This document shows positions 2,972 through 54,367 of a DNA stretch of 64,000 nt, in pieces. The translations under genes and the position numbers were made by a program. The notes beneath the pieces were generated by a model, which had not been told where the DNA came from, ran no database searches, and was given only the letters and a program-made list of their open reading frames with translations. Each line of letters starts with the position of its first letter. The first letter of the stretch is position 1. This DNA comes from Rhizophagus irregularis (Eukaryota), in assembly GCF_026210795.1 (NCBI RefSeq), contig NC_089429.1, positions 3,658,001 through 3,722,000 on the forward strand, read 5' to 3'.

Positions 2972-3947
2972 TTTTTTAATAACTTCTTGTTAAAAGTATA
3001 GAAATAAAAGGCAAATAAATATAAATTAAAACAATAACAGGGTGCCAGCAGTATCTTACTTTGAAGAAATATAAGGCCTTTAATACTCCACAAAGACATT
3101 TTATATTTATAAGTTACGCTAAAAAACTAAAAGTTAGTCCCTCTAATCTGAAATACAGTCTGACGTCAAGTAGATCTATTCTTATTATCTGGCCATCTAA
3201 GCCTTATGTAATAAACAAAATGTTAATTATATAATTATTTGTTAACTAGTTCAATATACTATCTTACCAGCAAACTGTATGTCCAATACTTTTGAGTCCT
3301 GAACTTCTTCATTTGACAAATCTTCTTTTAACAAGTTATCAAGAACACCTTTCAATCATCAGGAAGTCATGGGAAAAATGTTCATCAAATGTACATCAGT
3401 CACTTGATGTACATCATAAAGAAGCGCTGAACATCAGACCTTGTAATGTACAATTGATATCACAACATTTGATATACATCACCTAATTTTAATGTCCATT
3501 AACGATGTACATTATTTTAAAGATAATAAACATCATATCAAATTTATATAAATTATGTTAATATGACAATGCTAAATGTTATTGAATAATAAATTATTTA
3601 TTAAATTACATTATAATAATCTATACTAAAGTCTACTAAATCTATACTAATCTAATTAACCCAAAAATATTAGCTAAATGTTTCTATTAAAAATAAACAT
3701 TTTATTTGAAAATCTCCTCAAATTCATCCAATAGCATTTGTGATTTATGCTTATTCACAAACGTCAATGACAATACGCACGACATATTTTTGATTCTCCA
3801 TCAACTGGTTCCACAAGAGCTAGTAGATTCAATCCTAACCTAACAAACATTCAGCCACACGACAGATTATCTTTGACTTCTTTACGTCATAACAATACGA
3901 CAGTTTCACATTTGTACTTGTCGTCACATGCTCCTGTGCCTTCTCTG

Positions 3948-5261
3948 TAGTGCTCTGAAAAAAATCCGATCTGATCTGGATCCGCAGATTTGATCTGAGT
4001 CAGATCTGGTTCGGTTTTCAAAATTCTGATCTGATCAATTTTAGATCAGATCAGATCATAACACAAGAAAATCTGATCTGATCTGAACAGATTCAGATCA
4101 GATTTTTTTTAAATAAAAAAAAAATTTTTTTTTTAAAAAACTTTTCCTGGATAAACGGACGAAGCCGGACGACCAAGATTTAAAAGAACGAACTAGGTAA
4201 GTTCATTTTTTTTTTGTTTTTTTTACTTGAGGGAACGTAATTAACGATTCCCTTCTTTTTTAGTAGGAAGCCTGGACAAACGAAGCCTAACGACACGACC
4301 AGGATTTAAAAAAAATGAATGAACTATGGTAAGTTCGTTCCTTTTTTTTATTTTTATTTTTTTATTTTTTATTTAAGGAAACGTAATTAACGTTCCCTTT
4401 CTTTTTTTAGGAAATCTGGACGTGAAACAAAGAAATGACCAGGATTTAAGAGAATGAACTATGGTAAGTTCATTTCTTTTATTTTATTTTATTTTTTTTA
4501 CTTAAGGAAACGTAATTAACGTTCCCTTTCTTTTTTTTTAGGAAACCTGGACATGAGACGAAGGAACGACCAGGATTTAAGAGAACGAACTATGGTAAGT
4601 TCGTTTCTTTTATTTTATTTTATTTTTTTTTACTTAAGGGAACGTAATTAACGTTTCCTTTCTTTTTTTTTAGGAAACCTGAACGTGAGACGAAGGAACA
4701 ACCAGGATTTAAGAGAATGAACTATGGTAAGTTCGTTTCTTTTATTTTATTTTATTTTTTTACTTAAGGGAACGTAATTAACGTTCCCTTTCTTTTTTTA
4801 GGAAACCTGGACGTGAGACAAAGCTGAACGACCAGGATTTAAAAAAAGAACAAACTATGGTAAGTTCGTTTCTTTTTTTATTTTTTTTATTTTTACTTAA
4901 GGGAACGTACTAATTAATGTTTCCTTTCTTTTTTTTAGAAAACCTGGACATGAGACGAAGCTAAACGACCAGGATTCAAAAAAAAAAATGAACTATGATA
5001 AGTTCGTTTCTTTTTTTTGTTTTTTTTCTTATTTTTACTTAAGGAACGTAATTAACGTTCCCTTCCTTTTTTTAGGATAAAACCAGATCCAAACCAGATT
5101 CAGATCAGATTCAAATCAGATTCAAATAGATCTAAACCAGATTCGGATCAAATTGAACCAGATCTGATCAGATTCGAATCAGATCAGATCTATTAAAATA
5201 AAAATCAGATCAGATCAGATTTAAGCTGAATCCAGTCTGAACAGATCTGTTATGAGCACTA
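3948..5261 (+). mobile_element. hAT-type non-autonomous element with an internal array of 7 exon/intron-like units
   Basis: TIR TAGTGCTC/GAGCACTA; perfect 8-bp TSD CTTCTCTG; subterminal GATCA/GATCT repeats; ~133-bp internal units. Confidence 0.9.
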
Positions 5262-5349
5262 CTTCTCTGTCCATACTAGAGTCACCATTACCGGCACGTG
5301 GTCTGAACGTTTCACCAATCCCATTATGGATAGTCCTTATAACGTCGTC

Positions 5350-7010
5350 TACAACTTACAATAAAAAGATAAAATAAAAAAAAATTAATTTAATAAAAAA
5401 AAGTTTCAAAGAGAAACTTCAAAACTTACCTGAGAAGCCGACCTAAAACTCGAAGATGATTCCTACAAAATAGACAAAAGAACTAGAAATGGTTAGTTTT
5501 TTCAAAACAAAACAGAAAAAATTTAAAGAAAAAAGTTTTGAAAGTAAACTAAACTTTCGAAACTTACTAATCATATCGTCTAAGATCTAGAAGCTCAATC
5601 TACCGGTACCTGCAAAAAAAAAGAAAAAAAAAATTAATAAATTAAAAAGTTCAAAAGTAAACTTTACTTTCGAAACTTACAAATCCTATCGTCTAAGATC
5701 CGGGAACTCAATCTACCAGTACCTGCAAAAAAAAATCAAAAAAAAATAAATAAATTTTAAAAAAGTTCCAAAGCAAAGATTTGCTTCAAAACTTAACAAT
5801 TCATTCTAAGACGCTAATCTACAGCAAGGTACCGTTCTATAAAAAAGAAACCACCGAAGTCAGCCATTTAACGTCAAAAAATCCAACTGAAGAAGTTCAA
5901 GAAGCCATCATGTAAAGATATTTTTAGTTTATTGGTTTCATCTAATGAGTTAGATATCAAAGAAGGTATCAAAAAATCATATTATTTAATCGAAAAATAA
6001 ACAAACCGATACCTACAAAAAAAATAATATAAAATTTAAAAAAAAATAAATTAGAAAAAAAAAGTTATGTTTTGAATTTCAAATCGAAACTTACCATATA
6101 TTCAAGTTCCAAAGCCGAAAGAATCATACCTACAAAAAAAAACAAGAAAATTAAAAAAAAATAAATTAAAAAAAAATAAATTAAAAAAACATAAGTTTCG
6201 AATCGAAACTTACCAGATTCAAGTCCCAAAGCCGAAGAAACCAGAACTCTACAAAAAAATACGAAAAGAAACGTTAGATTATTTCTTAAATTAAAAATAA
6301 CAAAATCCCAACCCTTTCCCATTACTACCTTAAAGTTCAGTTCCGTATTCAAGCCAGCGTCTTACTAGTAGGAGTTCTACAAAAAAAAAAAAGTTCATTT
6401 CTTTAATTAAAAATAACTGAACAAACCCCCTTCCCCATTTCTCACTATCTTAAAGTCCAGTTTCATCATATTCAAACTAGCGTCCTCCTAGTACGCGTCC
6501 TACAAAAAAAATAAAATAAGAAACGTTAAGTAGTTTCTTTAATTAAAAATAACAAACTTCCCCTTCCCCATTTCTCACTACCTTAAAGTCCAGTTTCGTC
6601 GTATTCAAGCCAGCGTCCTCCTAGTAGAAGTTTTACAAAAAAAAAAAAATAATGAAAAGAAACGTTAATTCTTTTCTTTAATTAAAAATAACAAACCCCC
6701 CCTTTCCCCATTTCTCACCACCTTAAAGTCCAGTTTCGTCATATTCAAGCCGGCGTCCTCCTAGTAGACGTTCTACAAAAAAAAAAATAACGAAAAGAAA
6801 CATTAGTTCATTTCTTTAATTAAAAATAACAAACCCCCTTCCCCATTTCTCACTATCTTAAAGTCCGGTTTTGTCATATTTAAGCTGGCGTTTTCCTAGT
6901 ACGCGTTTTACAAAAAAAATAAAATAAGAAACGTTAAGTAGTTTCTTAAATTAAAAAAAAAAATTAAAAAAAAAATTATGTAAGTTTCGAAACGAAACTT
7001 ACATTACTTT
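5350..7010 (-). repeat. Micro-exon/intron array (about a dozen or more units) including a ~125-bp tandem repeat at 6240-6960
   Basis: Repeated minus-strand GTAAGT or GTAGTG donors, CTAAC/TTAAC branch motifs, T-rich tract + TAG/CAG acceptors. Confidence 0.7.
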
Positions 7011-7702
7011 CAAGAAAAAGAGGCGGAAGAAAAGTGTGAGAAAAAAGGTGTGAGAAAAAAGGTGTGAGAAAAAGGGGAGAATGAAAGGGGAAGGGAAGGA
7101 CGATAGAGGAAGAAGTAAAGAAGGAAAAAGGAAGGGAAAGGAAAAAGTTTAAAAAAGATGATCCTTTTTTAAACTTTTGATACACGTAATGTGTGACGAC
7201 GTGATGTGTAATTAGTGCATTATTCGACCAACATCTAATCGTAGATCATGGTCAAATTTTTTAATTTTAAGTACTAGTCGAATATAGGCCGAATTTTACT
7301 AAGGCCGAATATTCCTTTTTCAACTAGTAGTAAGAGAAGGGAAATGTGAGGAAGAGAAAGGGTGGGAAAGAGGAAAATAAAAGGATAAAGAAGAGGAAGT
7401 TTCATTTATCATGTTGCTAAGATTATTTCACGTGACATGATAATAAATAGGAGCTGATATCATAAAAATTTATTTTTGAAAACATCATATTTGATAAACT
7501 TAATAAACATTGAATTTTCATTATTAAATGATGCACATCATGATAAAAATCTCATTGGTGATGTTTATTAATATTAAATATTACATATACATTTAAAATA
7601 ATAAAAATTACGATGTAAATGATTTGCAAAAATATACATTTGATGAATATTTTTCCCATGACTTCCTGATGATGTTCATAAACATTTTGAACGATCTTGC
7701 AC

Positions 7703-7879
7703 TATACATGCTGCCCAAATTATTTTGGGATGCCATAATTATAATTTGGGATGCCATAATTCATTCAGTTTATATATAATTTACTATGTAAAGTGCCAAA
7801 ATAATTTGGGATGCCATAATTGAATTTGGGATTTTACTTATAATTACGGCAGTCCAAAATAATTTGGGTGGCATGTATA
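7703..7879. mobile_element. 177-bp hAT-type MITE, copy 1
   Basis: TIR TATACATGC..CCAAATTATTTTGG; 8-bp TSD TCTTGCAC; near-identical copy at 36930-37106. Confidence 0.9.
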
Positions 7880-10533: not shown

Positions 10534-11287
10534 TAGAGGTTGGAACCGATTAACGTTAATCGATTAATTAATCGGTTAAGGCGGTTAATCGGTTAGAAGT
10601 ATCAAAAAATCGGTTAATCGACTAAATTAACCGACTAAATTAACCGATTAATTAACCGATTAATTTAGTCGGTTAAAATACTATGCAGATCATTTTCTCA
10701 AATTAGATGATTTTTTATCCCGAAATTCAGATAAGAAGTTTTTTTAATATACAGTATTGACAAACTTGTCAAAAAAATAAACCCATTTAAACTTTTTATA
10801 AATATATCGATTATAGGCCTATTGAAAATGAATCTCTATCTGGTCATTTATTATATATTTTTTTGTAACATATTTAAATGCTTTTATAAGTATTTATTTT
10901 TATTTAAAGTTATTTATGGCGCAGCTAAATGTCATGTGATATATATTACGCAAAATATTGGCGGAATAAAAATATCAACAACATTCCTAAAAACTTGCAA
11001 TTCAATTCCACTATTATTAATATTGTTAATTTCCCATTTAATTAAACCTTGAATTAAAGTCAGTTCTCATTTCCCATTAAAATTTGATATAACTTTTTGA
11101 AATAATACATGTATATTATTCATATAGGGATGCAAAATTTATATATTAACCGATTAATTAATCGGTTAACCTCATCACAAATTAACCGATTAATTAACCG
11201 ATTAATTAACCGATTATTATTCAGTTATGGTAACTGATTAATCGATTATTAATCGGTTAAGGTTTTTTTGGTCGGTTCCAACCTCTA
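10534..11287. mobile_element. hAT-type MITE inserted in the left MULE TIR
   Basis: TIR TAGAGGTTGGAACCGA; 8-bp TSD CATCCTGT; many subterminal TTAACCGATTAA repeats. Confidence 0.92.
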
Positions 11288-13769
11288 CATCCTGTTATAT
11301 ACTTTTTTTGTAACAACCTCGGATTTATCACATGACATTACACAAAATTCCAAAAAAAGAAATTATTTTTCCCATTAAATTTGGAGAAGTAGGTAGCACC
11401 AGTATTGTACAAATTTCCAAAAAAGGAAATTTTCAATCATGTCATTAATTCTGGCCAGAATTATACTTTTTTGCACCAAATCTTGTAATTATTAGAATTA
11501 GCATTAATTTTGACCAAAATTATGCTTCACAAATCGCATTATGATGTGTGTAACTATTGTAATTATTGTCATTGTTACACATATTATGCACTGTTATACA
11601 CGTTACGCTATAACGCCATTATGCCACCAAAACTTTTTCATTATTTTCACGATATAACACTTCGCTCGCTTCACTCAACTTTTTACTTCAAGTTTTTTTG
11701 TTTTACAAGTTTTTTTTGCCCTAAAATTAACAAGGATCATTACAAGATGGACGTATCTGAATTGAATGTTCAAAAATTTACGCTTATAATACCACATAAA
11801 AGTATGTAAGTTCTTTATTTATATGCTTTATGTGGATACAATATCGTTTCTTATTTCAAAACATACAAACTTAGAGGAAGAATTAGGACAAGTACACCAA
11901 AACGATACTAATAAGGGTATATAGTGTATAGTATTTCTAATAATCTATCTGATTTTGTTTTTGCAATATTCAAACTTTTGTTTTCTCATGATATAGATAT
12001 AGAACAGGTTGAACTGAGTGATACTACAGAACCTCAGAACCTAGAAAGTAAAGGTAAAATTATTAGTTTCTTCATTGTTTCTTGTGTAAATATTCTGCAA
12101 TTCATCCAAATAGTAACTAAATCATTTTACCTTTGAAGATTCAACTACAGATCTTTGTATTGGTTGTATCTTTAAGTCATAGGATGACATTGATAATGTC
12201 ATGAAAGCCTTCGGTAAAAAGAATGGATTTACAATTATAAAGAAACGATTAGGTCAACACAAGGATGGAAACATAAAGCATCGAAGTTTTGGATGTGAAT
12301 TCGGTGGCCATTATCAATCACATAAACAGGTTGATATTAATAGTCATCGAAACTGTAAAACAAAACGCCTACAATGCCCATGGAATGCAAATTTCAATCG
12401 CACCCAAAACTCTCAAATTATAAAACTTACCACTTTCAATAACTCTCACAACCATACGTTATTTCCTGCTGATACTGAAAAGTATTTACCAAAATACCGT
12501 TATATTCCTGATGATGTTCTTAAAGAAGTTCAATTTCTCACTGAATATGGAAATCTAGCGATCACTACTTAAAGAAAGTTATTAAAGGCAAAATTTCCAA
12601 CTCTCTCTATCCTTGATTGTGATCTCGCCAATGCAATACAAAAATATAAGGTTAAGCCAGATATAGTACATGATGCATCTCATTTACTGAAAACACTAAT
12701 CGAGTATAAGTCAAACAGTCCTGGGTGGTTCATTGAATTTCAACTAGATCAAGAAATAGGCTTTCTTGATTATTTTGGATGTCTCCAACACATATTGCTC
12801 TTTGGTTGGAGTATCACGATATCATTTTAAACGATAATACTGCAAAAACCAACCGATATAACATGCCACTTTCACTCTTTCTTGCCGTTGATAATAATAC
12901 TAGATCTCGTCTTGTTGCACAGGCACTTATATCTGATGAAACAACGGAATCTTATAAATGGATCTTAGAGTGCACAAAAAAAGCAACAATGATCAAACCG
13001 TTAGTATTTGTTACTAACACGGATCCTGCTATGGATGCGGCAATTGAACAAATATATGAAACAACTTACCCAATTCACTATATCTTTCATATAAGCGAAA
13101 ATCTGCCAAAAAACACGAAATTCAAACTTTCTAATTAGTACGATGATTTTGTTCGTGACTTTTATCATTATCGCAATAGTTTGTGTGAAAAGAAAAAAAC
13201 TTCTTATGAAAGATGGGCGAAATTATTGAAAAATATTCAAGTGTGAAAGATTATTTAATGAGAACCCTTTATCCCAGCCGGCGGGCATGGGCTCGAGCAT
13301 TCATGTCAAGAATATTTACTGCGGGATCTAAACCACTTCACGCGTGAAAGGTTATAATAACATTATTAAACATGAGTTAACATCAAATAGTACCTTGTAT
13401 AATCTCACAAGTGCCCTTGATGCTCGGCTCAAAAGTGAGGTAAAATGGAATCAATTCTTTGAATATCAAACCCTATCAACCTGTATGGGAATCGCATCAG
13501 TTGGCCATGATCTTTTTCCAAAAGTGGATAAATTATTGTCCGAATATTTGACTCCTCACATTTTATCTGCTGTACGTTCTGAAATAGCGCAATGTCTCTA
13601 TTTTATTGCAAGTAAAGTGGAGTCAAACATTATTGAGGTAATTTGAAGTCTATTTTTTTGTGTTAGAAATTAGTAACGAATCATTTTTTTTCATTTTTGC
13701 CATATAGGATCCAAGTGTTAGTATAACAGATGGATGTATTGAAGATAAATATGATGCCAAGCAAACCTT

Positions 13770-14236: not shown

Positions 14237-14630
14237 TAAAGCTCTACATGAGCCAGCTTGAGCCGAGCCAAGGGCTAGCTCGGCTTGGCTTAGCTTAGCT
14301 TGTTCCAAAAGTTCACAAGCTGGCTCATTTTCAAAATCATATAAAATTTATTATAACTAAAATTTCAAAACGTGATAACTTCGCCAATATTGCTCCAAAT
14401 TTAATGATTTTACTACCATTAGATTCGTCTCATCAAGAGGAATCGAATGGTAGTAAATTTATTAAATTTGGAGCAATATTGGCGAAGTTATCATGTTTTG
14501 AAACTTTAGTTTTAATTTTTAATAAATAGAGTCAGGGTAACATCAAGCCAAGCTATAACTGCAACTTAGTTTGGCTTGGCTTAGTGCAGCTTAAAAGCTC
14601 ACAAGCTGGCTCAGCTCATGTAGAGCACTA
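14237..14630. mobile_element. hAT-type MITE with a central ~145-bp palindrome
   Basis: TIR TAAAGCTCTACATGAGC/GCTCATGTAGAGCACTA; TSD TTTGTCGT/TTTGTCAT; interrupts the SWIM motif. Confidence 0.88.
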
Positions 14631-20202: not shown

Positions 20203-22799
20203 TTATTCTATTTATATTAAACTTTTAGTTTTTTAGATTTTTTAGATATACTTGTGTAATGAGCAATCTCAATTGCATCATCATAAGATTGTTTTAAAAA
20301 ACCTGGTTTTTTGAATAATGATTTATTGATTTCTTTATTTTCAAATTGTGAATTGATCTATAAATTGTTATAATATATTCTTAATAATTATTATAAAATA
20401 AAAAAAAGTTTGACAAGATTAATATATTACAAATAAATTTCATATTATTAATAATTTATTGAATAGCTTTTATTATTTTATGAATACATGACTAATATGA
20501 CTAATAAATTTTCTTTTTAATTAACATAGTTGTGAACTATAAAATTTTGAATATATATTTTGTATTATTTATATTATTATAGATTAAAATTTCAAGTGTT
20601 ATTAATATATATATTTTTGAATAATTAATAAAGTATGAATTCCATTATTTCTATCCAAGTAGTATATATATATATACATATTTTATTTATATATATAATT
20701 TCTTTTTTTTTTATCATTAAAAATAAATAAAAAAATAAATAGCATCAAATTTGACAATAAACTGTTTTAAATAAAATCAGGTTGTTAAAGAATATTAATA
20801 ATATTCACAAAATAAATTATTTTTACAGTTTGTATTTTTTTTCTTTTATCAATATTCCAATTAATTCTTTCCAATTATTTGATAATTATGTTCTTAAACA
20901 TTTTTAGTAATTCAGTTAAAATTTTTATGTCATATTCATCAGTAAATTTACTTTTAATTTCAGATTTAGATGCATTTTTTATTTCATACAATTTGTCATC
21001 ATTTTCCATATTATAGAATGCTGTAGAATCTGAATTCAATTGCTTCATTTATCATTGGATTTATTGCATTTTTTTTTTAATTTAATTTCATAAAAATATT
21101 TATTATTATAAATTGTAGTAACGTCATTATTATACTTATTCTATTTATATTAAACTTTTAGTTTTTTAGATTTTTTTAGGTGTATTTGTACAATAAGCAA
21201 TTGCATTATTATAAAATCATTTTTAAAAAACTTGCCTCTTTAAATAATAATTTATTGATTTTTTTATTTTGAACAGCTTTTATTATTTCATGAATATATA
21301 ACTAATAAATCATATAAAGATTTATAAAAAATAATAACTTACAATTTGTCTTTATTTTCCATGTAGAATGCTATAAAATCTGAATTTAATTGCTGTATTT
21401 ATCATTGGATTTGTTGCATTTTTTTTTAATTTAATTTTATAAAAATATTAATTATTTAGATTGTAATAATGTCATTATTATGCTTATTCTATTTATATTA
21501 AACTTTTAGTTTTTTAAATATTTTAGATGTATTTATACAATGACCAATTTCAATTGTATTATCATAAAATCATTTTAAAAAACTTGTCTCTTTGAATAAT
21601 GATTTATTGATTTCTTTATTTTGAACAGCTTTCATTATTTCACAAATATATGACTAATAATAAATTATATAAAGATTTATAAGAAATAATAACTTACAAT
21701 TTATTTTTATTTTTCATGTAAAATGCTGTAGAATTTGAATTCAATTGTTACATCTATTATTGGATTTATTGCATTTTTTTTAATTTAATTCCATAAAAAT
21801 ATTTATTATTATGAATTGTAGTAATGTTATTATTTGTGCTTATTCTATTTATATTACTTATGCAATGAGCAATCTCAAATGCATTATTATAAAATCATTT
21901 TAAAAAACTTATTTTTTTAAATAATAATTTATTGATTTCTTTATTTTAAATAGCTTTCATTATTTTATAAATATATCATTAATAAATCATATAAAGATTT
22001 ATAAGAAATAATAATTTACAATTTGTCTTTATTTTCATATAAAATGCTAGAATTTGAATCCAATTGTCGCAGTCATCATTGGATTTGTTGCATTTTTTTT
22101 AATTTAATTCTATAAAAATATTTATTATTATAGATTGTAGTAATATTATTGTTTATTCTATTTATATATTTTTTTTTTAATTTTTAGTTTATTAATTATA
22201 ATACTTGGAATTATACAATATAAGTAAATTACATTACAAAATATACAGTAAATAGGTTAACTACTCCTGCAGTACAATGAGAATACATTAATAAACCTGG
22301 TGCAAATGCACCTATGAATTAAAAGAAAAAAGATGCAGGAAAAATAGAAACAAAAAAAAAAGTCCCACATACAAAAAAGAAAATAAAAAACAAATATGTA
22401 AAAATAAGGAAATAGTCAGTAATGAAGCCACCCTACTACCATTGGTAAATTTTTTAGGATAAAAATCTGCAAAGATCTCTGGCCTAAATTTCTGCACAGA
22501 TCTGCTACCCTATCAACACATGTCAGAGAAAATTTTTTAATAAAATCTATACAGATCTGCAAATGTTAAAAAATCTGCACAGAATTTTAAAAATAAATCT
22601 TCAGAATTTTTCAAAACAACTCAAATTCAGTTATCTGCTATTGAATGTTAACTAGTATCAATTTATTTAATTTATTTAATAAAAGTATTACAAATTATAT
22701 GTACAAATTAATTAAACTACACTAATTATTCTATACTACAAATTTATACGTTGTTAATAGTTTGGACATTGTTCCAGTTAGTTCGATTCTAACAAATAA

Positions 22800-25625
22800 T
22801 GGAGACCTACAAATGAAAAAAAAATTTCAAAGCAAGCAGCTTCAAAATATATAATCCAGCAGTCCAGAATCTAAACGCAAAAGAAACGATTATTAGTATA
22901 ACGATCATTAAAAAAAAAATATATAATCCAGCAGTCCAGAATCTAAACGTAAAAGAAACGATTATTAATATAACGATCATTAAAAAATAGAACTTTAAAG
23001 TATTTACCTTTGAAGTTTTTAAATACTTTAAAGTTCTTCATAATGGAAAACTGTAACCTAAAATAAAGAAAAAAATGAACATTAGTATAATATTCATTAA
23101 AGAAAGTAAAACAAAAAAAGAACTTCAAAGTGTTTACTTTCGAAGTTTTTTACTATTACAGTTTACCATCCTAAGGATTTTCAGCAAAATGTGAATCTAG
23201 AATCTAAAATAAAAGAAGAATGAACATTAGTTCACATTCGCTAAATAAAATTAATAAAAAAAATTTTATTCGAAGAAATACCTTCGAATTCTAAACATTT
23301 TGTTGAACAAAAAAAAATAAAAATATAATTTTAAAGATATTTACCTTAAAAATCCCTCCTTCTATTTCTTACATTCTAAGTCTGGTTCATTTAAAGAAGC
23401 TTGACAACCTATAAAATGAATAAAGAACATTAAAAATGTTCTTTTATAAGAAAAAAAAATTATAAAGTTTCACAATGAGACGTTGTGAAATTTACTTTTA
23501 TCCGTTTTAGGAATCTTTGAAGTACTGAAACTACAAAAAAAATAAAAATAAAAATAAAATGTTAGTTACATTTCATTTAAATAAAAACAGAAAAAAACAG
23601 AATTTTAAAGTTTACCTTCGAAATTCTGTTCAGAAGGAGTTTGGAGTGCTGTATTCTTATAAAGAAATAAAAATGAAATATTAGTCAACGTTTCGTTTAA
23701 ATAAAAAATAAGAAAAAATAAAAGAATTTTGAAATTTACCTTCAAAATTCTATTTAGAAAGTATTTATGAACTCGTTCATAGACATACAAAAAGAAGAGA
23801 AGCGAAACATTAGTAAACATTTCATTTTCATAAAAAAAGCAAAAAAAAAATTTTAAAAATTACTTCGAAATTTTGTTCAGAAATCTCAGAACCTAAAAGA
23901 AAAATAAAAAACAACCGGTTAGTAAAAATAAATTATAAATGAAAAACAAAACTGAAAAAAATACACTCACCCAAAGTCTTAGAGACTGAAATCTAAAGAA
24001 AAACACAAAAAGATAATGCAAATTCACCTATTTGGAGATTAACCAAAACTTAAAAGATGAAAAAAAAAACAAAGATTTCAAAACGAAAAACAAAAAAGAA
24101 AAAAACCTAATGGTAAATTTACTTATAGTCTTGGGGAATTACTGAAACTTAAAGAAGAAAGAAAGAAAAAGTTAGTAAAAAGAAATTTGAAACAAAAAAA
24201 ACAAAAACAAAAGAATAAATGCAAACTCATCTGAAGTCTTGAAATCTTTACGTCTTATAACCTAAAAAAAAAATAAAAAACATTAGTATGATTAACATTT
24301 TGTTAAATAAAATCAATAAAAAAATGATACATTTCGAAGTCTTACAAAGTTCAAACTTATTTTTTGGCTTCCTTTACCTAAAAAAAGAAGACGAAACATT
24401 AGTTAATGTTCGTTAAAAAAAAATTATTTTTTTTTAAAAAGTTTATTTACCTTTAACAGAAGTCCAGAACTTTCTTTCAGCTTCCTCTACCTAAAAAAAA
24501 GAAGTACGAATATTAGTGAACATTCGTTTAAATGAAAAAAAAATAAAAATTCGAAGATTTTACCTTCAAAATTCTGTTTTAAAGGCAAAAATCTACAAAA
24601 AATAAAACTGAAATATTAGCTAATGTTTCGTTTAAATAAAATAAAAAAAAGAATAGAATTTTGAAGTATTACCTTCAAAATTCTGTCTGGAAGCCAAAAA
24701 CCTAAAAAAAATAAAAGAATGTTAGAAACTTTCTTTTATAAAAATAAAAAAAAACATAAGTTTCGTGATGAAAGTTCATCATAAAACTTACCATATTGAA
24801 GTTTTGGACCTTAGAGTACTAGAACCTATAAAATAAAAATAAAAAAAATGTTAGAAACGTTCTTAATAAAATAAAAAAAAATTTAAAGTTTCACAACAAA
24901 ATGTTACAAAACTTACCCTTTACTTATTTTAGGAATCTTTAGAGTACTGAAACCTACAAAAAAAAAGAAACCTAAAACACTTATTAGTAATGTTTCATTT
25001 AAATAAAAAAAATCAGAATTTCAAAGTTTACCTTCGAAATTATATCCAGGAGTGTCTGGAATGCTGTATTTTACAAAATACAAAAAAAGAAACGTTAGAA
25101 AATATTTTGTTAAATAAAATTATTAAAAATTTTTTTTTTTGAAGGTTTTACCTTTGATATAGAAGTCCAGAATTCGTTTTTAGCTTCCTTTACCTAAAAA
25201 AAAATATGAATATTAGTTAACGTTCATCAATAATTTAATTAAAAAAAATTCGAAGGTTTACCTTTGAAATGATTGCAAAAAACAAACAAAATAAATAAAT
25301 GAAAACATTAGTAAATATTTCATTAAATAAAACAAAAAAAAAATAAACGAAAAATTATTAGTATTTTGAAGATAAATACCTTCGAAATCCTGTTTTAGAA
25401 GCGATCGGAAAGCCATAGAAACCTATAAATTAAAAAAACTAAAACATTAGCCAACGTTTTGTTTAGAAAACAAAAAAACTTGAATTTTAAAGTTTACCTT
25501 GAAATTCCACGCAGAAATCAACAGAAACTATAGACCTACAAAATAATGAAAACGAAATGTTAGTTAACGTTTTATTTAATAAAAATAAAAAAAATAAAAT
25601 TTTGAAGGGTTTACCTTTGAATTCC
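22800..25625 (-). repeat. Array of roughly 20-25 micro-exon/intron units (further units at 26625-27000)
   Basis: Minus-strand AAG|GTAAA/GTAAT donors (ttaccttcgaa on +), CTAAT/CTAAC branch motifs (cattag/gttag on +), poly(T)-TAG acceptors every ~100-130 bp. Confidence 0.75.
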
Positions 25626-26094
25626 AGTATCTGTTAATAATAATGTTTAACAACAACATAAAATAAATTCATTCAGTGTTGTCATGGGACAATGTTTGGG
25701 ATATGTTACACAAAAAAGAAATGATAACCCCTTGAAATTTTTCTATAATAACCTTGTTCAATACTTAGCAAAAATGTTTAGCATCCAATTATGCATAAAT
25801 ATATATAATTTTTGTAATTACAGAAGAGTACAGACAGAATGTGAACATGTTCAGAACAACCAAAAAAAGCTGCAGACATCAAAAATATACAACACTGAAT
25901 TCACTGATAAATAGTATACCTAATTTAAGGTGGCCTATTCTTCATTCTACCAGTATGATGAACACCAAGTATCATAACCATTAATTCAAATAATACAAAC
26001 TCAAGTCTATCGTTCAAGATGCTGTTGGTGATGTATCATGGTATATGCATTCCTTATGTTTAGATTTCTGTTAAAGTATTATATTTAATGTACA

Positions 26095-26448
26095 CTAGTG
26101 TTCACCTGTTGTCTACGACAACAGTTAATATGTAATTCCGGCCAGAATTAAAAGATCTGCAAAGAATTTCCTTTTTTGGAAATTTGAGCAACACAATTTT
26201 TTAATTTCTCTGAAAAGTAACAGAAGACAAAATTTCCTTTTTTGGAAATTTGCGTAACCGACAATTTCCTTTTATGGAATCCGGTGTAACCCAAAGTTTC
26301 AGTTTTTTGCCAGAAATAAAATTTCCTTTTTTGGACTTGTGTAACATTGGCGACGAATAGGAGTAGGGTTACACAATTCAAATGACTTATTTATATGGTT
26401 AATCTAAACATAACGCCCACGTGATTGCAGTGTTTTTAAATATATAGA
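26095..26448 (-). mobile_element. Non-autonomous Helitron
   Basis: Minus strand starts TC, ends CTAG, inserted between A and T without a TSD; subterminal hairpin CTGTTGTC-n3-GACAACAG; internal ~40-bp repeats. Confidence 0.82.
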
Positions 26449-27529
26449 TGTTTGATGATTATAGAACAATATTGGATTCTTCTTTCATTGATTCTAATAC
26501 TGTTGCTTCTAATATGATGAATCGACTCAATCATTTTCCAATAATAAGCAATTCTCCAATTTTATTATTTAATAGTTTTGTGTAAAAAACTTATGAGATA
26601 CAGCAAAGGTCAGGTACTATTGGTGTTTGACTACAAAAAAAATAAAAAATGAATGTTAATGAAACGTTCGTTAAAATAAAAAAATTTCATTTTGAAAGTT
26701 ATTACCTTTGAAATATTTGAAATAAGACAGTATCTAAAAAATAAAAGAATAACAAATGTTAAAACATTTATTAAAAGAAAGTAAAAAAAAAGAACTTTGA
26801 AGTATTACATTTGAAGTTCTTTCAAATGGGAGCCTGTGACTTAAAAAATAGGAGAAATGAACAATAGTGAAGTATTCGTTAAAAGAAGAAACTTAATTTC
26901 GAGGTATTACCTTTGAAGTTCTTTTAAATAGGAATCCAGAACTCCAAGGGAGCTGTCCTTTAAAATAAACAGAAGTAAAGAATGTTAGTAAACGTTCTTA
27001 ATGTTAGTTAATATTTTTCACACGAATCTTGCCATTTTTGCCCATAAGACTTCATAAGACTTTGAAAGTCAAAAAAAACTTTTTTTAACAAAAATCCTAA
27101 GAAAATTCAAAGTTAGGTGAATTTACTAATTTTATTCGTCGACTTCGAAGCTTGAAAAAAATAGTAATCTTTGAGTATTTTTTTAAAAAAAAACTGTGAT
27201 AGAAATAATTGTCTTTAAAAAGTGTTATAAATTATTTCTTTAAAGTCTTGTAAAAAATTGTTTCTTTAAAAAAGTTTAAATTTGGTTAAAATTAATTAAC
27301 TCGAGTCAATGCAAAGTTTATCAAATAAAAAAAGAAAAATGTGAAGATCTCCAAATATTTTTGTGCGAAGTGTTTTAAAAATATGTGATTTTGGAGATTA
27401 TCACAGATTTGTTTATAAAATATCTTTGAAAAAAATAAAAAGATGAATTCTGCAGTATTGCGCAGATTTTTACTAAAAATTGCAGATTATTGCAATTCTA
27501 CATCCTAAAAAGTTTACTGATGACAATTA

Positions 27530-30095
27530 CACTTCTAAAACTAAGATTATCTAACCATTCTTTTGAATTTATATTATGATACTCCTAGTTTTCTAAACAT
27601 TAACCTTATTTTTGCTAATATAATAAGCTGTCAATACCGTCTAAGGCCTTATCTATGTTCTTGATTTCCTTAGTCACTTTTTGCTTCTTACTCAACTGAG
27701 TGTTAGTATTAATTGTTCGATTCTTGAAGTTGCCTTTTTGATTCATCTTCTGAGGGCATCTACTTCTTTGTTTCAAGTTAGAGGTAAAGTACTTCATCTA
27801 ATCAGTAAATTCGTTCAAACTAAATGGCTTACCAATGATCTTTTTCAAATCAGCCCATGATTCGTAGTAAGTTATTAATTTACAGATACCCTGATCTTGA
27901 ATTAATTAAAATGCTTTACACCTAAAGGTATAACAATAGAATGAGCAGAATTATCCAGATATAAAGTAGCTGTAATTACTGAAGCAAGAACTCCTTTAAA
28001 CATAGCCTGAAATCATTCTCATTTTTTTCTTTGTTTGAGATAATCTCTTAATTAATTTGAATTTAATTGATACTGTAATAGTAACGTATTTAAAACTTGC
28101 TTTTATTTACCTTTGGGCGTAAAAAAAGTGGTTTTTGCTGAGAGGATACTAATTGGTTCCTTTTGTTGTACTGTAGCTTTTGATTGGTGTTTAGATGTTT
28201 TAAGCACTTTTAAAATTTCTATATCCATCAGTTAATTTTCTAAAGATTTGAATATGTCTGGCATTTGTTGTTAGTGCTCCTAACAGATCAGTTCAGACTG
28301 GATTCAGCTTAAATCTAATCTGATCTGATTTTTATTTTAATAGATCTGATCTGATCCGAATCTGATCAGATCTGGTTCAATTTGATCTGAATCTGGTTTG
28401 GATCCATTTGAATCTGATTTGAATCTGATCTGAATCTAGTTTGGATCTGGTCCTTGTCCTAAAAAAAGGAAGGAAACGTTAATTACGTTCCTCAAGTAAA
28501 AAGAAAAAAAAACAAAAAAAAGAAACGAACTTACCATAGTTCGTTCTTTTTTTTGAATCCTAGTCGTTCAGCTTCATCTCACGTCCAGGTTTCCTAAAAA
28601 AAAAAAGAAAGGGAACGTTAATTACGTTCCCTTAAGTAAAAATAAAAAAATAAAAAAAAGAAACGAACTTACTATAGTTCGTTCTTTTTTTTAAATCCTG
28701 GTCGTTCAGCTTCGTCTCATGTCCAGATTTCCTAAAAAAAAGAAAGGGAACGTTAATTAGTATGTTCCCCTTAAGTAAAAATAAAAAAAAATAAAAAAAA
28801 AAATGAACTTACCATAGTTCGTTCTTTTTTTTGAATTTTGGTCGTTCAGCTTCGTCTTACGTTCAGGTTTCCTAAAAAAAAGAAAGAGAACATTAATTAG
28901 TACGTTCCCTTAAGTAAAAATAAAAAAAAATAAAAAAAAGAAACGAACTTACCATAGTTCGTTCTTTTTTTTAAATCCTGGTTGTTTAGCTTCGCCTCAC
29001 GTTCAGGTTTCCTAAAAAAAAGAAAGGGAATGTTAATTACATTCCCTTAAGTAAAAATAAAAAAAAAAACAAAAAAAGAAATGAACTTACCATAGTTCGT
29101 TTTTTTTTTTAAATCCTGGTCATTCAGCTTCATCTCACATCCAGGTTTCCTAAAAAAAAAGAAAGGAAATGTTAATTACGTTCCCTTAAGTAAAAAAAAT
29201 AAAATAAAATAAAAGAAATGAACTTACCATAGTTCGTTCTCTTAAATCCTGGTTGTTCCTTTGTCTCACGTTCAGGTTTCCTAAAAAAAAAAGAAAGGGA
29301 ACGTTAATTACATTCCCTTAAGTAAAAAAAATAAAATAAAATAAAAGAAATGAACTTACCATAGTTTGTTCTTTTTTTTAAATCCTGGTCGTGTCGTTAG
29401 GTTTCGTTCATCTAGGCTTTCTACTAAAAAAGAAGGGAACTGTTAATTATGTTCTCTCAAGAAAAAAACAAAAAAAAAAAATGAACTTACCTAGTTTGTT
29501 CTTTTAAATCTTGGTCGTCTAGCTTCGTCTGTTCGTCCAGAAAAAGTTTTTTAAAAAAAAATTTTTTTTTTTTATTTAAAAAAAAATTTGATCCAAATCT
29601 GTTCAGATCAGATCAGATTTTCTTGTGTTATGATCTGATCTGATCTACAGATTAAAATTTTGAAAACCGAACCAGATCTGACTCAGATCAACAGATCAGA
29701 TCAGATTTTTTTTGGGGTACTATTTATTGTAGTAACGTCATCTGTTGTTTCATGAACTCTTTGCAAACACTTTCCATTCCTTTAATTACACTAACTTAAA
29801 TAAAGTCAAAAGACTTGTAAAAAAGAAAGAGTAAGTGATATAAAGACTGTAAGTCACCGATACTAAAAGTTGCAAGAGCCTCATGATATTTCATAAGTAA
29901 TTTCATATACAGTTCTTCATCTTCAGTAAGTTTTTCAACGGTTTGAAAAATATTTTCATTTGTTAAACTGAAAGAAAAATATTTCTTAGAATATGGCTAA
30001 CCGATTCAAAGTAGAAAGTTCTGTCCACAGCTGTATCAAAGTCATTACCCTCAAAAAGGGTTTTAGAAATGTTTTAATTCGATAAAGAAGCCATA
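27530..30095 (-). pseudogene. Decayed ORF resembling ORF1 of fungal non-LTR retrotransposons, split by the hAT element at 28272-29722
   Basis: Fragments such as FKGVLASVITATLYLDNSAHS..GVK and KLITYYESWADLKKI; multiple stops; family assignment from recall only. Confidence 0.35.
28272..29722 (-). mobile_element. Second, inverted copy of the hAT element at 3948-5261, with 8 exon/intron-like units
   Basis: Reverse-complement identity to 3948-5261; TIR TAGTGCTC/GGGTACTA; TSD TTTGTTGT/TTTATTGT. Confidence 0.9.
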
Positions 30096-33975: not shown

Positions 33976-35035
33976 TGTTACGCAGTAAAATGTTGCGCAG
34001 CAATCATGTGATATAACTGGACCTGTGATGCTGATCAATGTAGCAAATGTTGAATATGTTTGATATGTTCGATATGTTGCATATGTCCGATATATAGAAT
34101 ATATAGAATATGTAGTATATATGGAATATATAGAACATATAGCATATATAGGATATATAGCATATGTAACATATGTTAAACATTTTTAGTTTGGAAATTT
34201 ATGTATACACAGTGAAATTCGATAAACCGGATCTATCGGTTCCACTAAAAATATCCGGTTTATCGGGATATCTGGTTTAGCGAAAAAATTTTGATATATT
34301 GAAAATCTATTATATTGAATTTTTAAAAAATTTTCATGCTAATAAAACTAATATACACTATAATTTGATTTTTTCATCTAGTTTTAAGTCATAGAGGTCA
34401 TGAAAATGAATATAAAATATTTTAAAAGTAATACATAACTTCAGCCGGAATTAAGATTTTTATAATTCTGGCCAAATTTAGGATTTACCGCATCACGTCA
34501 CTTAAATTTTATTGGTTCCCAGTCACGTTATCCGGTTTATCGAATCATTTTTACTATAGCTGGTTAGAAAATTGATCCGTTATAGCGAATATCGAGCTTT
34601 TACTAGTAAACTCCGGTATATCGAACCTATTTTAATATACGTGATTTGGTTCCAGCAAAAAAGTCTAGTTTAGGCGCAAATCCGGTTTATCGAAGATCCG
34701 GTTTATCGAATTTCACTGTGTATATAGACCTGTAATTAGACCTGTAATTAAAGAATTCAATATAAGAATGTATGTGAAGAATTTAATTAATAAAATGTTT
34801 ACCCTTTAATATACACCTTAATTTTAAGTTTGGTTTTATATGGTTAATCTGCCTTCCCTTATTTATGTTTGATTGTATGCGCCAGTATGAAGCGATACTC
34901 TATTCACATCTGATTGGATTGATTTTAACATATACGTTGATCCTTAAAATTACCTTCTGCTTTATTAAATATAAACATTTTTTAATGTATAGCTTATTTT
35001 TAAGCTTATAAGAACTGACCTCTAAGGCTCTAACA
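33976..35035. mobile_element. Probable solo LTR inserted in the LINE relic
   Basis: TGTTA...TAACA ends; 4-bp TSD ATAC; internal 9-bp tandem repeats at ~34050-34180. Confidence 0.65.
34208..34720. mobile_element. Tc1/pogo-type MITE nested in the solo LTR
   Basis: TIR CACAGTGAAATTCGATAAACCGGATCT; TA TSD. Confidence 0.9.
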
Positions 35036-36929: not shown

Positions 36930-37106
36930 TATACATGCTGCCCAAATTATTTTGGAATGCCATAATTATAATTTGGGATGTCATAATTCATTCGGTTTAT
37001 ATATAATTTACTATGTAAAGTGCCAAAATAATTTGGGATGCCATAATTGAATTTGGGATTTTACTTATAATTACGGCAGTCCAAAATAATTTGGATGGCA
37101 TGTATA
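36930..37106. mobile_element. 177-bp hAT-type MITE, copy 2
   Basis: Matches 7703-7879; TSD GTTCAAGT/GTTCAGGT. Confidence 0.9.
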
Positions 37107-50992: not shown

Positions 50993-51876
50993 TAGAGGTG
51001 TGATCCAGATAAAATTTTACAATCTGTGATTTGCCTAGATCAGTCTGGATTATCATAGGATTAAATCCAGATAAACCAAATTAACTTTAAATTTTTAGAT
51101 ATCTCAATATCCAATATTAAATTATACAGAGATGTATAATAGTTCATTCGAATTGTTGCAATGAGACGATTTAAATGAGCTATTATACAACTCTGTATGA
51201 CTACTGAATGCTGAAATATTTGGCAAAAACGTCAAAAATCAGTATTGTTCATTTTACAATACTGCAAAATTTTACGTTTTAGCAAATATCTTAGCATCCA
51301 ATGATTATATAGAGATGCACAATAGCTCATTCAAATTATCTTAATACAGCGCTTTGAATAAGCTAATGTGCAACTCTGTATGATCATTAGATGCCGATAT
51401 ATTTGGTAAAATGTAAAATGGCGCATTATCTTAAAATGAAAATTTTGATTTTTAATATTTTACAAAATATAGTAGTCATATTACTCATGTAGAGTTGTAC
51501 AATAGCTCATTCAAATCATTGCATTGAGACAATTCAAAGGAGCTATTATGCACCTCTATATGATCACTGGATGCTGAGATATTTGGTAAAACATAAAATA
51601 GCATAGTATTATAATTTGTGAATATATAAAGTGCTGATTTTTGGTGTTTTGCCAAATATCTCAGCAACTAGTAATTGTAAAGAGGTGTACAATAGCTCAT
51701 TTGAATCATCTCATTGCAATGATTTGAATGAACTATTATACATCTTTGTATGATCACTGAATACTTAAACAAATTAAAACAGATAATCCTAAATCCATCC
51801 AGATTAATCCATTATCCATTTAATCTGGATGGATTGATGGATGATCCAAATTTTCAGATTTTGAATCACATCTTTA
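50993..51876. mobile_element. hAT-type element with four internal ~180-bp palindromic modules
   Basis: TIR TAGAGGTGTGAT/ATCACATCTTTA; 8-bp TSD TTTGTAAT. Confidence 0.82.
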
Positions 51877-53032: not shown

Positions 53033-54367
53033 TAAAGCTCTGAACGGTTCAGGCTAAACTGGGGAACCGATCCGAAACTGGCTCAAAATTCAGTTCGGTT
53101 CGGTTCGGTTCGGGTATTAGAACTGAAAAACCGGCGGTTCGGTTCAGTTTAATCCGATTTTTTATAAAAATGCGAAAAATCGAATAGCTGGCCATCTAGT
53201 GATCGTACAAAGTCGAACCATATATCATTGAATTCGTTTCGATAAGACGCGTCGAATGGAGGTAAGATCATGTCTCTAGCATCGATAGATCACACGTTAA
53301 CCCACGCTAAATGATTTATAAATAATTGGAATTAGCAAGTTATCTATCGGTGCTAGAGACATGATCTTAGCACCATTCAACGCGTCTCAGTGAGACGAAT
53401 CCAATAAATATGAATTCGTTCGTATACGACCACTGGATGGCGAATAATACCAAGTTTCGCATTTTTTTAAAATTTTTGAGCATTAAAAATTAAAAATTCT
53501 GATACATGAATTTATTCGTCATCCAATGGCCGTACAAATATGAATTAGGACTCATTGGATTCGTCTCGATGAGACGAGTCGAATGGTGGTGAGATATATT
53601 GGTCTCTCTGTTGATTTCTATTGTTATATCCATTGCTTCTTCTATTTCCGTTTCTGTTGTTGTTGTTTCCATTGTCTTCTTCGTTATGGTAGTTGTAGTA
53701 GTTGTTATTGTTGTTGTGGTGTTTATCATGTCTCTAGCATTTATAAATAGCTTGCTAATGCCAATTTTTTATAAATCATTTAGCGTGAATTAACTTATGA
53801 TCTATTGATGCTATAGACATGATCTCACCACCATTCGACTCGTCTCATTGAGACGAATCCAATGAGTCTTATTTCATATTTGTACGACCATTGGACGACG
53901 AATAAATTCATGTATCGGAATTTTTAATTTTTAACGCTCAAAAATTTTTAAAAAATGCAAAACTTGATATTATTCGCCATCCAGTGGTTGTATATGAACA
54001 AATTCATATTCATTGGATTCGTCTCACTGAGACGCGTCGAATGGTGCTAAGATCATGTCTCTAGCACCGATAGATAGCTTGCTAATTCCAATTATTTATA
54101 AATCATTTAGCGTGGGTTAACGTGTGATCTATCGATGCTAGAGACATTATCTTACCGCCATTCGACGCGTCTCGTCGAGACGAATCCAATGATATATGGC
54201 TCGACTTTGTACGATCACTAGATGACTGGCTATTCGATTTTTCGCATTTTTATAAAAATCGGATTAAACTGAACCGAACCGCCGGTTTTTCAGTTCAGTT
54301 CTTACGGATTTCGGCTCTAATCCGAACTGTCTATAATCCGGACCAAACCGACCCATTCAGAGCTTTA
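53033..54367. mobile_element. 1.3-kb hAT-type foldback element with ~480-bp internal inverted arms
   Basis: TIR TAAAGCTCTGAA/TTCAGAGCTTTA; perfect 8-bp TSD CATCATCG; ~53120-53600 is the reverse complement of ~53820-54300. Confidence 0.92.

Follow-up and report, generated by a model that had tools for sequence, protein, structure and literature searches.

Co-varying hairpins over predicted donor and branch sites in tandem exon–intron arrays of Rhizophagus DNA transposons: putative splice attenuators

Why are DNA transposons that code for no protein filled with rows of short exons and intron-like sequences, and why do the splice signals of these introns lie in hairpins? The question is raised by a 64,000-nt stretch of Rhizophagus irregularis contig NC_089429.1 (the window), for which an original prediction claimed that both splice signals of each array intron sit in stem-loops. 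The DNA of the window is AT-rich and eukaryotic, and a single-exon gene at 43825–44808 belongs to a 90% protein cluster in which 4/4 named members are from R. irregularis. The window also contains a decayed FAR1/MULE transposase gene, a kinase gene and many small transposons (Table 1). One acceptor of the kinase gene has decayed near 38349, and a 177-bp element is present in two copies that are 98% identical (7703–7879 and 36930–37106).

We analysed the carrier of the first array, element A, whose first copy is 1314 bp long with its interior filled by array A1. The terminal inverted repeats (TIRs) start with TAGTGCTC at both ends, GATC-rich subterminal repeats lie inside both, and an exact 8-bp target duplication, CTTCTCTG, flanks the element on both sides; the ORF listing contains no ORF of at least 70 aa within it. 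The target duplication of the second copy agrees at 7 of 8 positions. hAT transposons are recognized by an 8-bp target site duplication, short TIRs starting with YAR, and subterminal repeats. By these marks, element A is classed from its sequence as a non-autonomous hAT element; it matches MITE-like members of this group in TIRs, subterminal repeats, target duplication and absence of an ORF, but differs in its intron-array interior. The same test revealed six further small elements with TIRs and 8-bp target duplications in the window, excluding one further match that was spurious; one of the six (14237–14630) sits within the MULE gene. None of the six has an intron array and two have the terminal motif of element A. 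The array is thus cargo, as sister elements with the same terminal repeat are free of it. The end motif of element A had no match in the metagenome contigs searched. In R. irregularis, hAT counts as one of the families with a recent expansion (passages of PMC8647823).

The donors of array A1 are at 4197, 4329, 4464, 4595, 4727, 4860 and 4998, the last one having decayed to AT. For a wider sample, a general motif scan of metagenome contigs gave 20 loci, 7 of them with arrays or array units (L001 and L014 overlap), whereas an apparent chimera (L008) and 12 chance matches were left out. Copies in the seven loci are younger and CpG-intact. The search motif itself required partial stems in one unit per locus; the 8 units selected in this way are inside the side-wise shuffle counts given below and were dropped from the arm-swap test. 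Searches of viral contigs gave no match. At L015:3203–4546, two inverted copies of an array 3′ end surround another element. At L020:1–1621, a gene that we take to be BTB/TLD-like, from domain names assigned to its translation, leads straight into one array-type unit at its 3′ end, either as a natural fusion or as an assembly chimera.

Introns were called by splice signals alone, which yielded 112 units (40 from the window and 72 from the related loci). The caller recovered 40 of the ∼63 window units visible by eye, and none from array E. In the called units a GT donor, a YTAAY-type branch motif, a pyrimidine tract and YAG follow one another in this order. The introns have a median length of 79 nt (interquartile range 75–84 nt) with the branch 23–27 nt from the acceptor, and the exons are 10–66 nt long (median 35 nt). 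These signals are nearly confined to one strand and nearly absent on the opposite strand; as the caller required the signals, this strand contrast is the independent part of the evidence for U2-type introns. Judged by signal order on one strand, the array introns are predicted to be of U2 type. The arrays are CpG-rich (observed/expected 1.5–2.5 versus 0.85 for the window) and probably grow via tandem duplication of whole exon–intron units.

A coding role for the arrays was rejected. Most exons have lengths that three does not divide, and family A has 5–11 stops per frame; the young loci do have stop-poor frames, but stops are low in all frames there, and protein searches with the open frame through L002 returned only the frame itself. 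Short non-coding exons also alternate with uniform introns in multi-intron non-coding snoRNA host genes, e.g. GAS5/UHG. The arrays share this alternation, but their units lie inside transposons, and an identity as a snoRNA host gene array was rejected by the absence of Rfam matches in the whole window at the gathering threshold.

The carriers of arrays A, B and C are three different inverted-repeat shells. Array B consists of two types of units, one with the donor in a stem and no branch hairpin, the other with a branch-stem remnant and no donor hairpin. The first copy of element A is inserted into the array-B shell. The exon downstream of array B (5262–5355 and 3674–3946, minus strand) is split by element A and resembles a decayed short ORF that had no match in Pfam and protein searches. 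In element C, an insertion at ∼25640–26625 interrupts the array, and the element ends and unit order are common to metagenome loci L002, L016 and L001. Directly downstream of array E (minus strand), ∼80-bp units form a tandem array at 191–660.

Table 1. Features of the window and their coordinates
Feature	Position	Strand	Details
Array E	780–1150	−	2–3 units; no significant hairpin (z −0.95 for the one unit folded)
Inverted-repeat shell around array B	3355–7673	−	42-nt repeat, 95%
Element A copy 1, non-autonomous hAT-type DNA transposon (classed by sequence)	3948–5261	+	TIR, 8-bp duplication, no ORF
Array A1	4120–5075	+	7 units: 53–65-nt exon + 67–82-nt intron
Reference unit of array A1	exon 4542–4594; intron 4595–4673	+	predicted 79-nt U2-type intron: GTAAGT, branch A 4651, U tract, TAG
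Third, weaker hairpin in family-A exons	4546–4574	+	CCTGG...CCAGG; p ≤ 0.05 in 5/12 family-A exons
Donor hairpin, reference unit	4584–4605	+	4584–4591 pairs with 4598–4605; loop ATG/GTA (slash, junction); donor +4 onward paired
Branch hairpin, reference unit	4638–4658	+	4638–4645 pairs with 4651–4658; loop AATTA
Array B	5355–7030	−	∼13 units of two types
Perfect 12-bp inverted repeat burying first array-B donor	6978–7004	−	GT at 7002
Hairpin over MULE-gene donor 11806	11792–11835	+	−19.7 kcal/mol, z −6.1
Element C, inverted-repeat shell	∼22440–27522	−	∼33 decayed units, 22800–27060
Branch hairpin, array C	24393–24411	−	
Long donor-in-stem hairpin, array C	24755–24791	−	z −4.7
Loop-type donor hairpin, array C	25249–25268	−	decayed, one A.C mismatch
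Element A copy 2	28272–29722	−	8-unit array 28459–29580; 85–87% identical to copy 1
Kinase gene	37434–39961	−	MLKL-like N-terminal region in duplicate (weak, sub-threshold Pfam match)
hAT-like elements without array	10534–11287, 14237–14630, 34210–34718, 49822–50269, 50993–51876, 53033–54367		TIR + 8-bp target duplication

All five example sequences quoted in the original prediction were found at the positions given, except that the branch-stem string quoted for the reference unit is an exact match only in the next unit (4768–4788), from which the reference unit differs. In the reference unit the 3′ arm of the branch hairpin is ACGTTTCC, with one G.U pair, and the branch A is its first base. 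The predicted fold of 4575–4675 consists of exactly the donor and branch hairpins (−24.9 kcal/mol, z −4.47; 0/200 shuffles as good). The other quoted hairpins gave z −6.0 (7002 donor), z −2.1 (25261 donor; 7/200) and z −3.2 (24400 branch; 2/200). The exon–intron junction had been placed in the loop and the branch motif at the apex. The first geometry was seen at the reference unit, but at 7002 (minus strand) and 24791 the GT lies within the stem; at the branch sites the loop takes in only bases 5′ of the branch A, and the branch A itself is predicted to be paired.

We then counted how often such hairpins occur. Each side of a signal was shuffled separately with the splice core kept, and p ≤ 0.05 was scored as a pass. 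Both sites passed in 7/14 units of family A, 3/18 of array C, 0/8 of array B and 26/72 of the related loci, compared to 0/13 coding-gene introns (8 host-gene and 4 MULE-gene introns from the window and 1 from L020). For the donor alone the counts were 8/14, 5/18, 2/8, 46/72 and 1/13, and for the branch site alone 12/14, 6/18, 1/8, 38/72 and 0/13, in the same order. Because of these both-site counts, the word ‘each’ in the claim that both signals of each intron lie in stem-loops was an overstatement; half of family A does show it. The window arrays (8.1 kb) contain 8 perfect GC-containing inverted repeats of at least 9 bp (shuffle mean 1.4, maximum 4), the related loci (11.9 kb) contain 55 (shuffle mean 1.7, maximum 7), and the remaining 55.5 kb of the window contain 18. 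Of the 63 perfect repeats in the arrays, 59 hold a donor or a loosely defined branch motif, and none of the 112 acceptors is covered by a hairpin. The third hairpin of the family-A exons is rare in other arrays, so it is not general.

The hairpin design of the arrays is therefore real and beyond chance, compared both to shuffles and to coding-gene introns. Chance pairing of A-rich exon ends with T-rich introns, multiplied by duplication of single units, is hardly credible as its source. It is true that one ancestor per family would copy a single chance hairpin and that the composition favours A-U pairing, but the composition-keeping side-wise shuffles were exceeded, the perfect repeats of the related loci far outnumber expectation, and the donors follow three or more designs and show covariation. 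We rejected chance pairing on the side-wise shuffles, the perfect-repeat counts and the arm swaps described below.

The three donor designs differ in what they pair. In family A, exon bases pair with the intron from +4 onward, and the loop covers donor positions −3 to +2. In the commonest design, the last exon bases TTCGAAG pair with the intron beyond a 5–11-nt loop that begins with GT, leaving +1 to +5 in the loop. In the third, intron bases 1 to 10–17, GT included or nearly so, pair with downstream intron bases. A donor of similar sequence has an exonic partner in family A and an intronic one in B, C, L002 and L015, and these differing partners suggest convergence on a paired U1 site. The branch design is common to the arrays, with a 3–6-nt loop that stops right before the last AAC of the motif and covers positions −5 to −2. 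As one AACGTT-type core recurs in every branch stem, an independent look is confined to the donor designs. The design had been described as shared across unrelated repeat families; it does recur in different transposon shells, but with the common branch core the families are not fully unrelated.

Next, we computed the cost of opening these sites. The median cost at the U1 site is 7–8 kcal/mol in family A, L002, L014 and L016 versus 4.1 kcal/mol in coding-gene introns, and this roughly equals the energy returned by U1 pairing, as computed for a duplex with the U1 motif. Opening the branch site costs 3–5 kcal/mol versus 1.5 kcal/mol in coding-gene introns. The opening energies lie above those of the 13 control introns with p values of 0.003 and 0.01. 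This cost, high compared to coding-gene introns, counts in favour of splice attenuation. Our main reading, to which we give a probability of about 40%, is that the stems gate U1/U2 binding and leave largely unspliced RNA with many decoy introns, which would make the arrays putative splice attenuators. It is weakened by the many units that miss one or both hairpins, and by the fact that the two commonest designs loop out the GU and the bases 5′ of the branch A, which fits presentation of the signals equally well.

The latter alternative holds that, in an RNA of repeated A- and U-rich units, the local hairpins prevent long-range mispairing and expose in their loops the GU and the upstream portion of the branch motif, where U1 and U2 could gain a toehold; efficient splicing would then load the RNA with splicing marks and lead to more expression or to silencing evasion. 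The loop coverage described above and the strong, evenly spaced signals favour it. However, the GT is wholly buried in the donor-in-stem designs, the branch A is predicted to be paired, and the family-A transcript reads described below traverse the introns; we consider it unlikely.

Transcript reads were taken from polyA RNA runs chosen by species label and mapped to 3300–6000 (430, 540 and 203 reads), a region that takes in array A1 and a minor part of array B; a sequence search of sequencing runs had no RNA run among the matches listed. The reads are mostly 90–95% alike to the window, with only 6/430 and 10/540 at least 99% alike, and hence come from paralogs. They are without strand, oligo(dT) could capture A-rich antisense RNA or DNA, and 63–71% of them run on unlike the window. 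Depth at the intron end equals that of the adjacent exon in runs X18 and X19 (41 and 81 at 4792; 41 and 74 at 4820), and no GT..AG joint was present among the nine joints listed, the reads being cut at repeats beside the donors. Read depth in family A thus leans towards intron retention, in paralogs and with no strand shown. Among the loose read ends listed, with 182 further rows outside the listing, those at 5817 and 5907, on the other hand, resemble spliced exon–exon joins of an array-B relative, which is suggestive only and speaks for efficient splicing. Variants in the reads restore stem CpGs (4320, 4852 and 4918) and, at 4656, a G-C pair of a stem; at 4998 they restore the donor G, which is intact in 25/28 reads of X18 and 95/111 of X19.

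A lack of covariation was part of the case that would refute the original prediction, but the stem arms do co-vary. When arms were swapped within arrays, the observed pairing was reached in 0/1000 trials at branch sites (98 units) and 1/1000 at donors (53 units). The signal is strong at the branch sites of C, L002 and L016 and at the donors of L016; it is absent from the branch sites of B and L015 and from the donors of L001/14 and L015, and not significant at the donors of C. At donor position −8 (n = 57) we counted 35 T-A, 9 C-G, 3 T-G, 0 C-A and 10 other combinations, which is a non-CpG compensation. Branch arm lengths are matched in 44/58 cases, and the outer stem sequence varies with the pairing kept. 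In a first subset, 29 branch sites that align without gaps, 81% of cells are paired compared to 32–51% in slid controls, and 9/11 pairs show two-sided change (0/500 shuffles). A second subset (loop-4, n = 24) is weaker, as 351/500 shuffles reach its number of pairs with two-sided change. Since both subsets (29 and 24 of 77 units) were picked by loop length in the best register, which favours pairing, and since units are related, these numbers are not probabilities; relatedness by duplication also means that the unit counts throughout are not independent. RNAalifold, run on unselected MAFFT alignments (56 donors, 75 branch sites), predicted no pairs, the rows being out of register as loop lengths vary. 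The covariation shows that pairing is maintained; it does not indicate whether at the level of RNA or of DNA.

This distinction bears on the original inference of a function at RNA level, which is favoured by the recurrence of the design, the covariation and the position of the stems on donors and branch sites. It is opposed by the lack of an overall G.U excess: mismatches are even (45 G.U versus 43 A.C), and the G.U:A.C ratios of 11:9 in the window (p 0.82) and 13:6 in the related loci (p 0.17) are not significant. In addition, 14/63 stems have spacers of 0–2 nt, i.e. are perfect palindromes of the kind that fold-back DNA synthesis would yield, and the consensus stems are purely Watson–Crick. 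In the young loci, single donor-CpG changes kept pairing via G.U in 8/9 cases (a post hoc count). In the window’s copies of family A, CpG decay proceeds regardless of pairing and often breaks stem pairs, and these copies are therefore dead.

These observations suit an origin and upkeep at the DNA level, a possible though on balance doubtful account. An ancestral intron would have gained palindromes at its signals, and fold-back (template-switch) synthesis would copy one arm to the other, giving covariation without selection; hairpins and poly(T) would promote tandem duplication, the units would multiply selfishly, and any splicing effect would be a side effect. The equality of G.U and A.C and the perfect palindromes agree with this, as does the finding that double CpG changes in the young loci mostly compensate each other (donor 4/4, branch 7/10), as arm-to-arm copying would give. 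Some perfect stems bear non-consensus branch motifs, and the single core in all branch stems points the same way. What the account leaves unexplained is why the stems lie almost only on donors and branch sites and why donor partners are upstream in one family and downstream in others; the one-strand splice signals kept across divergent units also stand against it.

A further DNA-level alternative is that the CpG-centred palindromes (TTCGAA, AACGTT), ∼110–135 bp apart and spaced by poly(dA:dT) tracts, are double-stranded sites bound by a protein, methylase or transposase, with the splice-like signals as relics. The CpG richness of the arrays and their location inside transposon shells would fit. 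However, a variable outer stem with pairing kept fits structure and not a binding motif, the sister hAT-type elements are array-free, and donor, branch, U tract and AG are ordered on one strand; we regard this as very unlikely.

Returning to splice attenuation, known systems offer partial parallels. Hairpins mask the splice donor in retroviruses, namely the HIV-1 SD hairpin (abstract of PMC4974535) and the MLV 5′ splice site (passages of PMC2794156); as described there, they are, like the hairpins of the arrays, local stem-loops in mobile-element RNA that overlap the U1 site of 11 nt and in which structure rather than sequence is apparently kept. The array stems overlap the U1 site and co-vary, as do attenuating hairpins of the retroviral type. 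The arrays differ in having dozens of tandem sites, in that the branch site is paired too, and in that their splicing effect is putative; moreover, their carriers are DNA transposons, which do not depend on unspliced genomic RNA, and encode no protein.

Fungal introner-like elements and the internally symmetrical Hypoxylon (stw)introns (passages of PMC8469720) are likewise repeated U2 introns with inverted-repeat structure that multiply as families in fungi. They are, in those passages, single and seamless gene insertions whose terminal repeats pair both intron ends, whereas the arrays have tandem units that include the exon, two separate local hairpins, and one donor design that uses exon bases. 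An introner identity was rejected, as the units are tandem exon + intron copies and 0/13 coding-gene introns (window and one locus) have the design; the end-pairing symmetry of introners was rejected as well, the two hairpins being separate and local with the acceptor outside both. In Cryptococcus neoformans, a stalled spliceosome is reported to trigger RNAi of transposons and siRNA production (passages of PMC6643885, citing Dumesic 2013). That case shares with ours poorly spliced introns (here putatively so), transposon RNA and a fungus with RNAi; the signals of the arrays, compared with what those passages describe, are near-consensus but structured, and apparently maintained.

Our search of mainly open literature found no description of hairpin-masked intron arrays; repeat libraries such as Repbase may contain their consensus sequences. 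No such arrays are described in passages of PMC8647823, PMC5751038, PMC10234402, PMC8469720, PMC7082362, PMC6643885, PMC2794156 and PMC13465315 or in the abstract of PMC4974535. The design is apparently undescribed and sits inside known kinds of elements, with a putative function.

The mechanism that we propose starts from DNA transposons that code for no protein in a Rhizophagus-type fungus and are packed with tandem repeats, each made of a short exon and a ∼79-nt intron-like unit. In their transcript, the co-varying hairpins over donor and branch signals likely attenuate splicing. U1 and U2 would bind slowly or stall, giving a mostly unspliced transcript with a row of decoy introns. This might change host RNA surveillance of the element, either by licensing it as intron-bearing self RNA or by feeding small-RNA silencing. 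A bolder version, which we hold to be unlikely though not far-fetched, is that Glomeromycotan transposons carry a portable decoy-intron array of 7 to >30 hairpin-gated introns, captured by unrelated shells, which holds U1/U2 particles without completing splicing and so steers splicing-coupled genome defence by shielding, by soaking up surveillance, or by seeding siRNA in trans.

Unclassified repeats make up about a quarter of the genome in R. irregularis, according to passages of PMC8647823, and the elements give a precise anatomy to part of such sequence. If the stems act in RNA, nature offers in the arrays a library of structured donor and branch sites, replicated many times and with compensatory variants included, and it would become directly testable how splicing marks tip the balance between tolerating and silencing fungal transposon RNA. 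If upkeep of the stems is at the DNA level, the arrays clearly exemplify introns that multiply through hairpin-driven tandem duplication, unlike introners. Either way, gene predictors likely take such arrays for many-exon genes.

Two minor observations concern other introns. In the decayed FAR1/MULE transposase gene, the donor of predicted intron 1 (11806) is buried in a 19-bp hairpin with G.U pairs, whose sequence is unlike the array hairpins although the idea is alike; its host transposon is coding. Array B has a possible 6-nt micro-exon at 6007–6012 (minus strand), and in three RNA runs the loose read ends at 5817 show these six letters right after the end of an exon.
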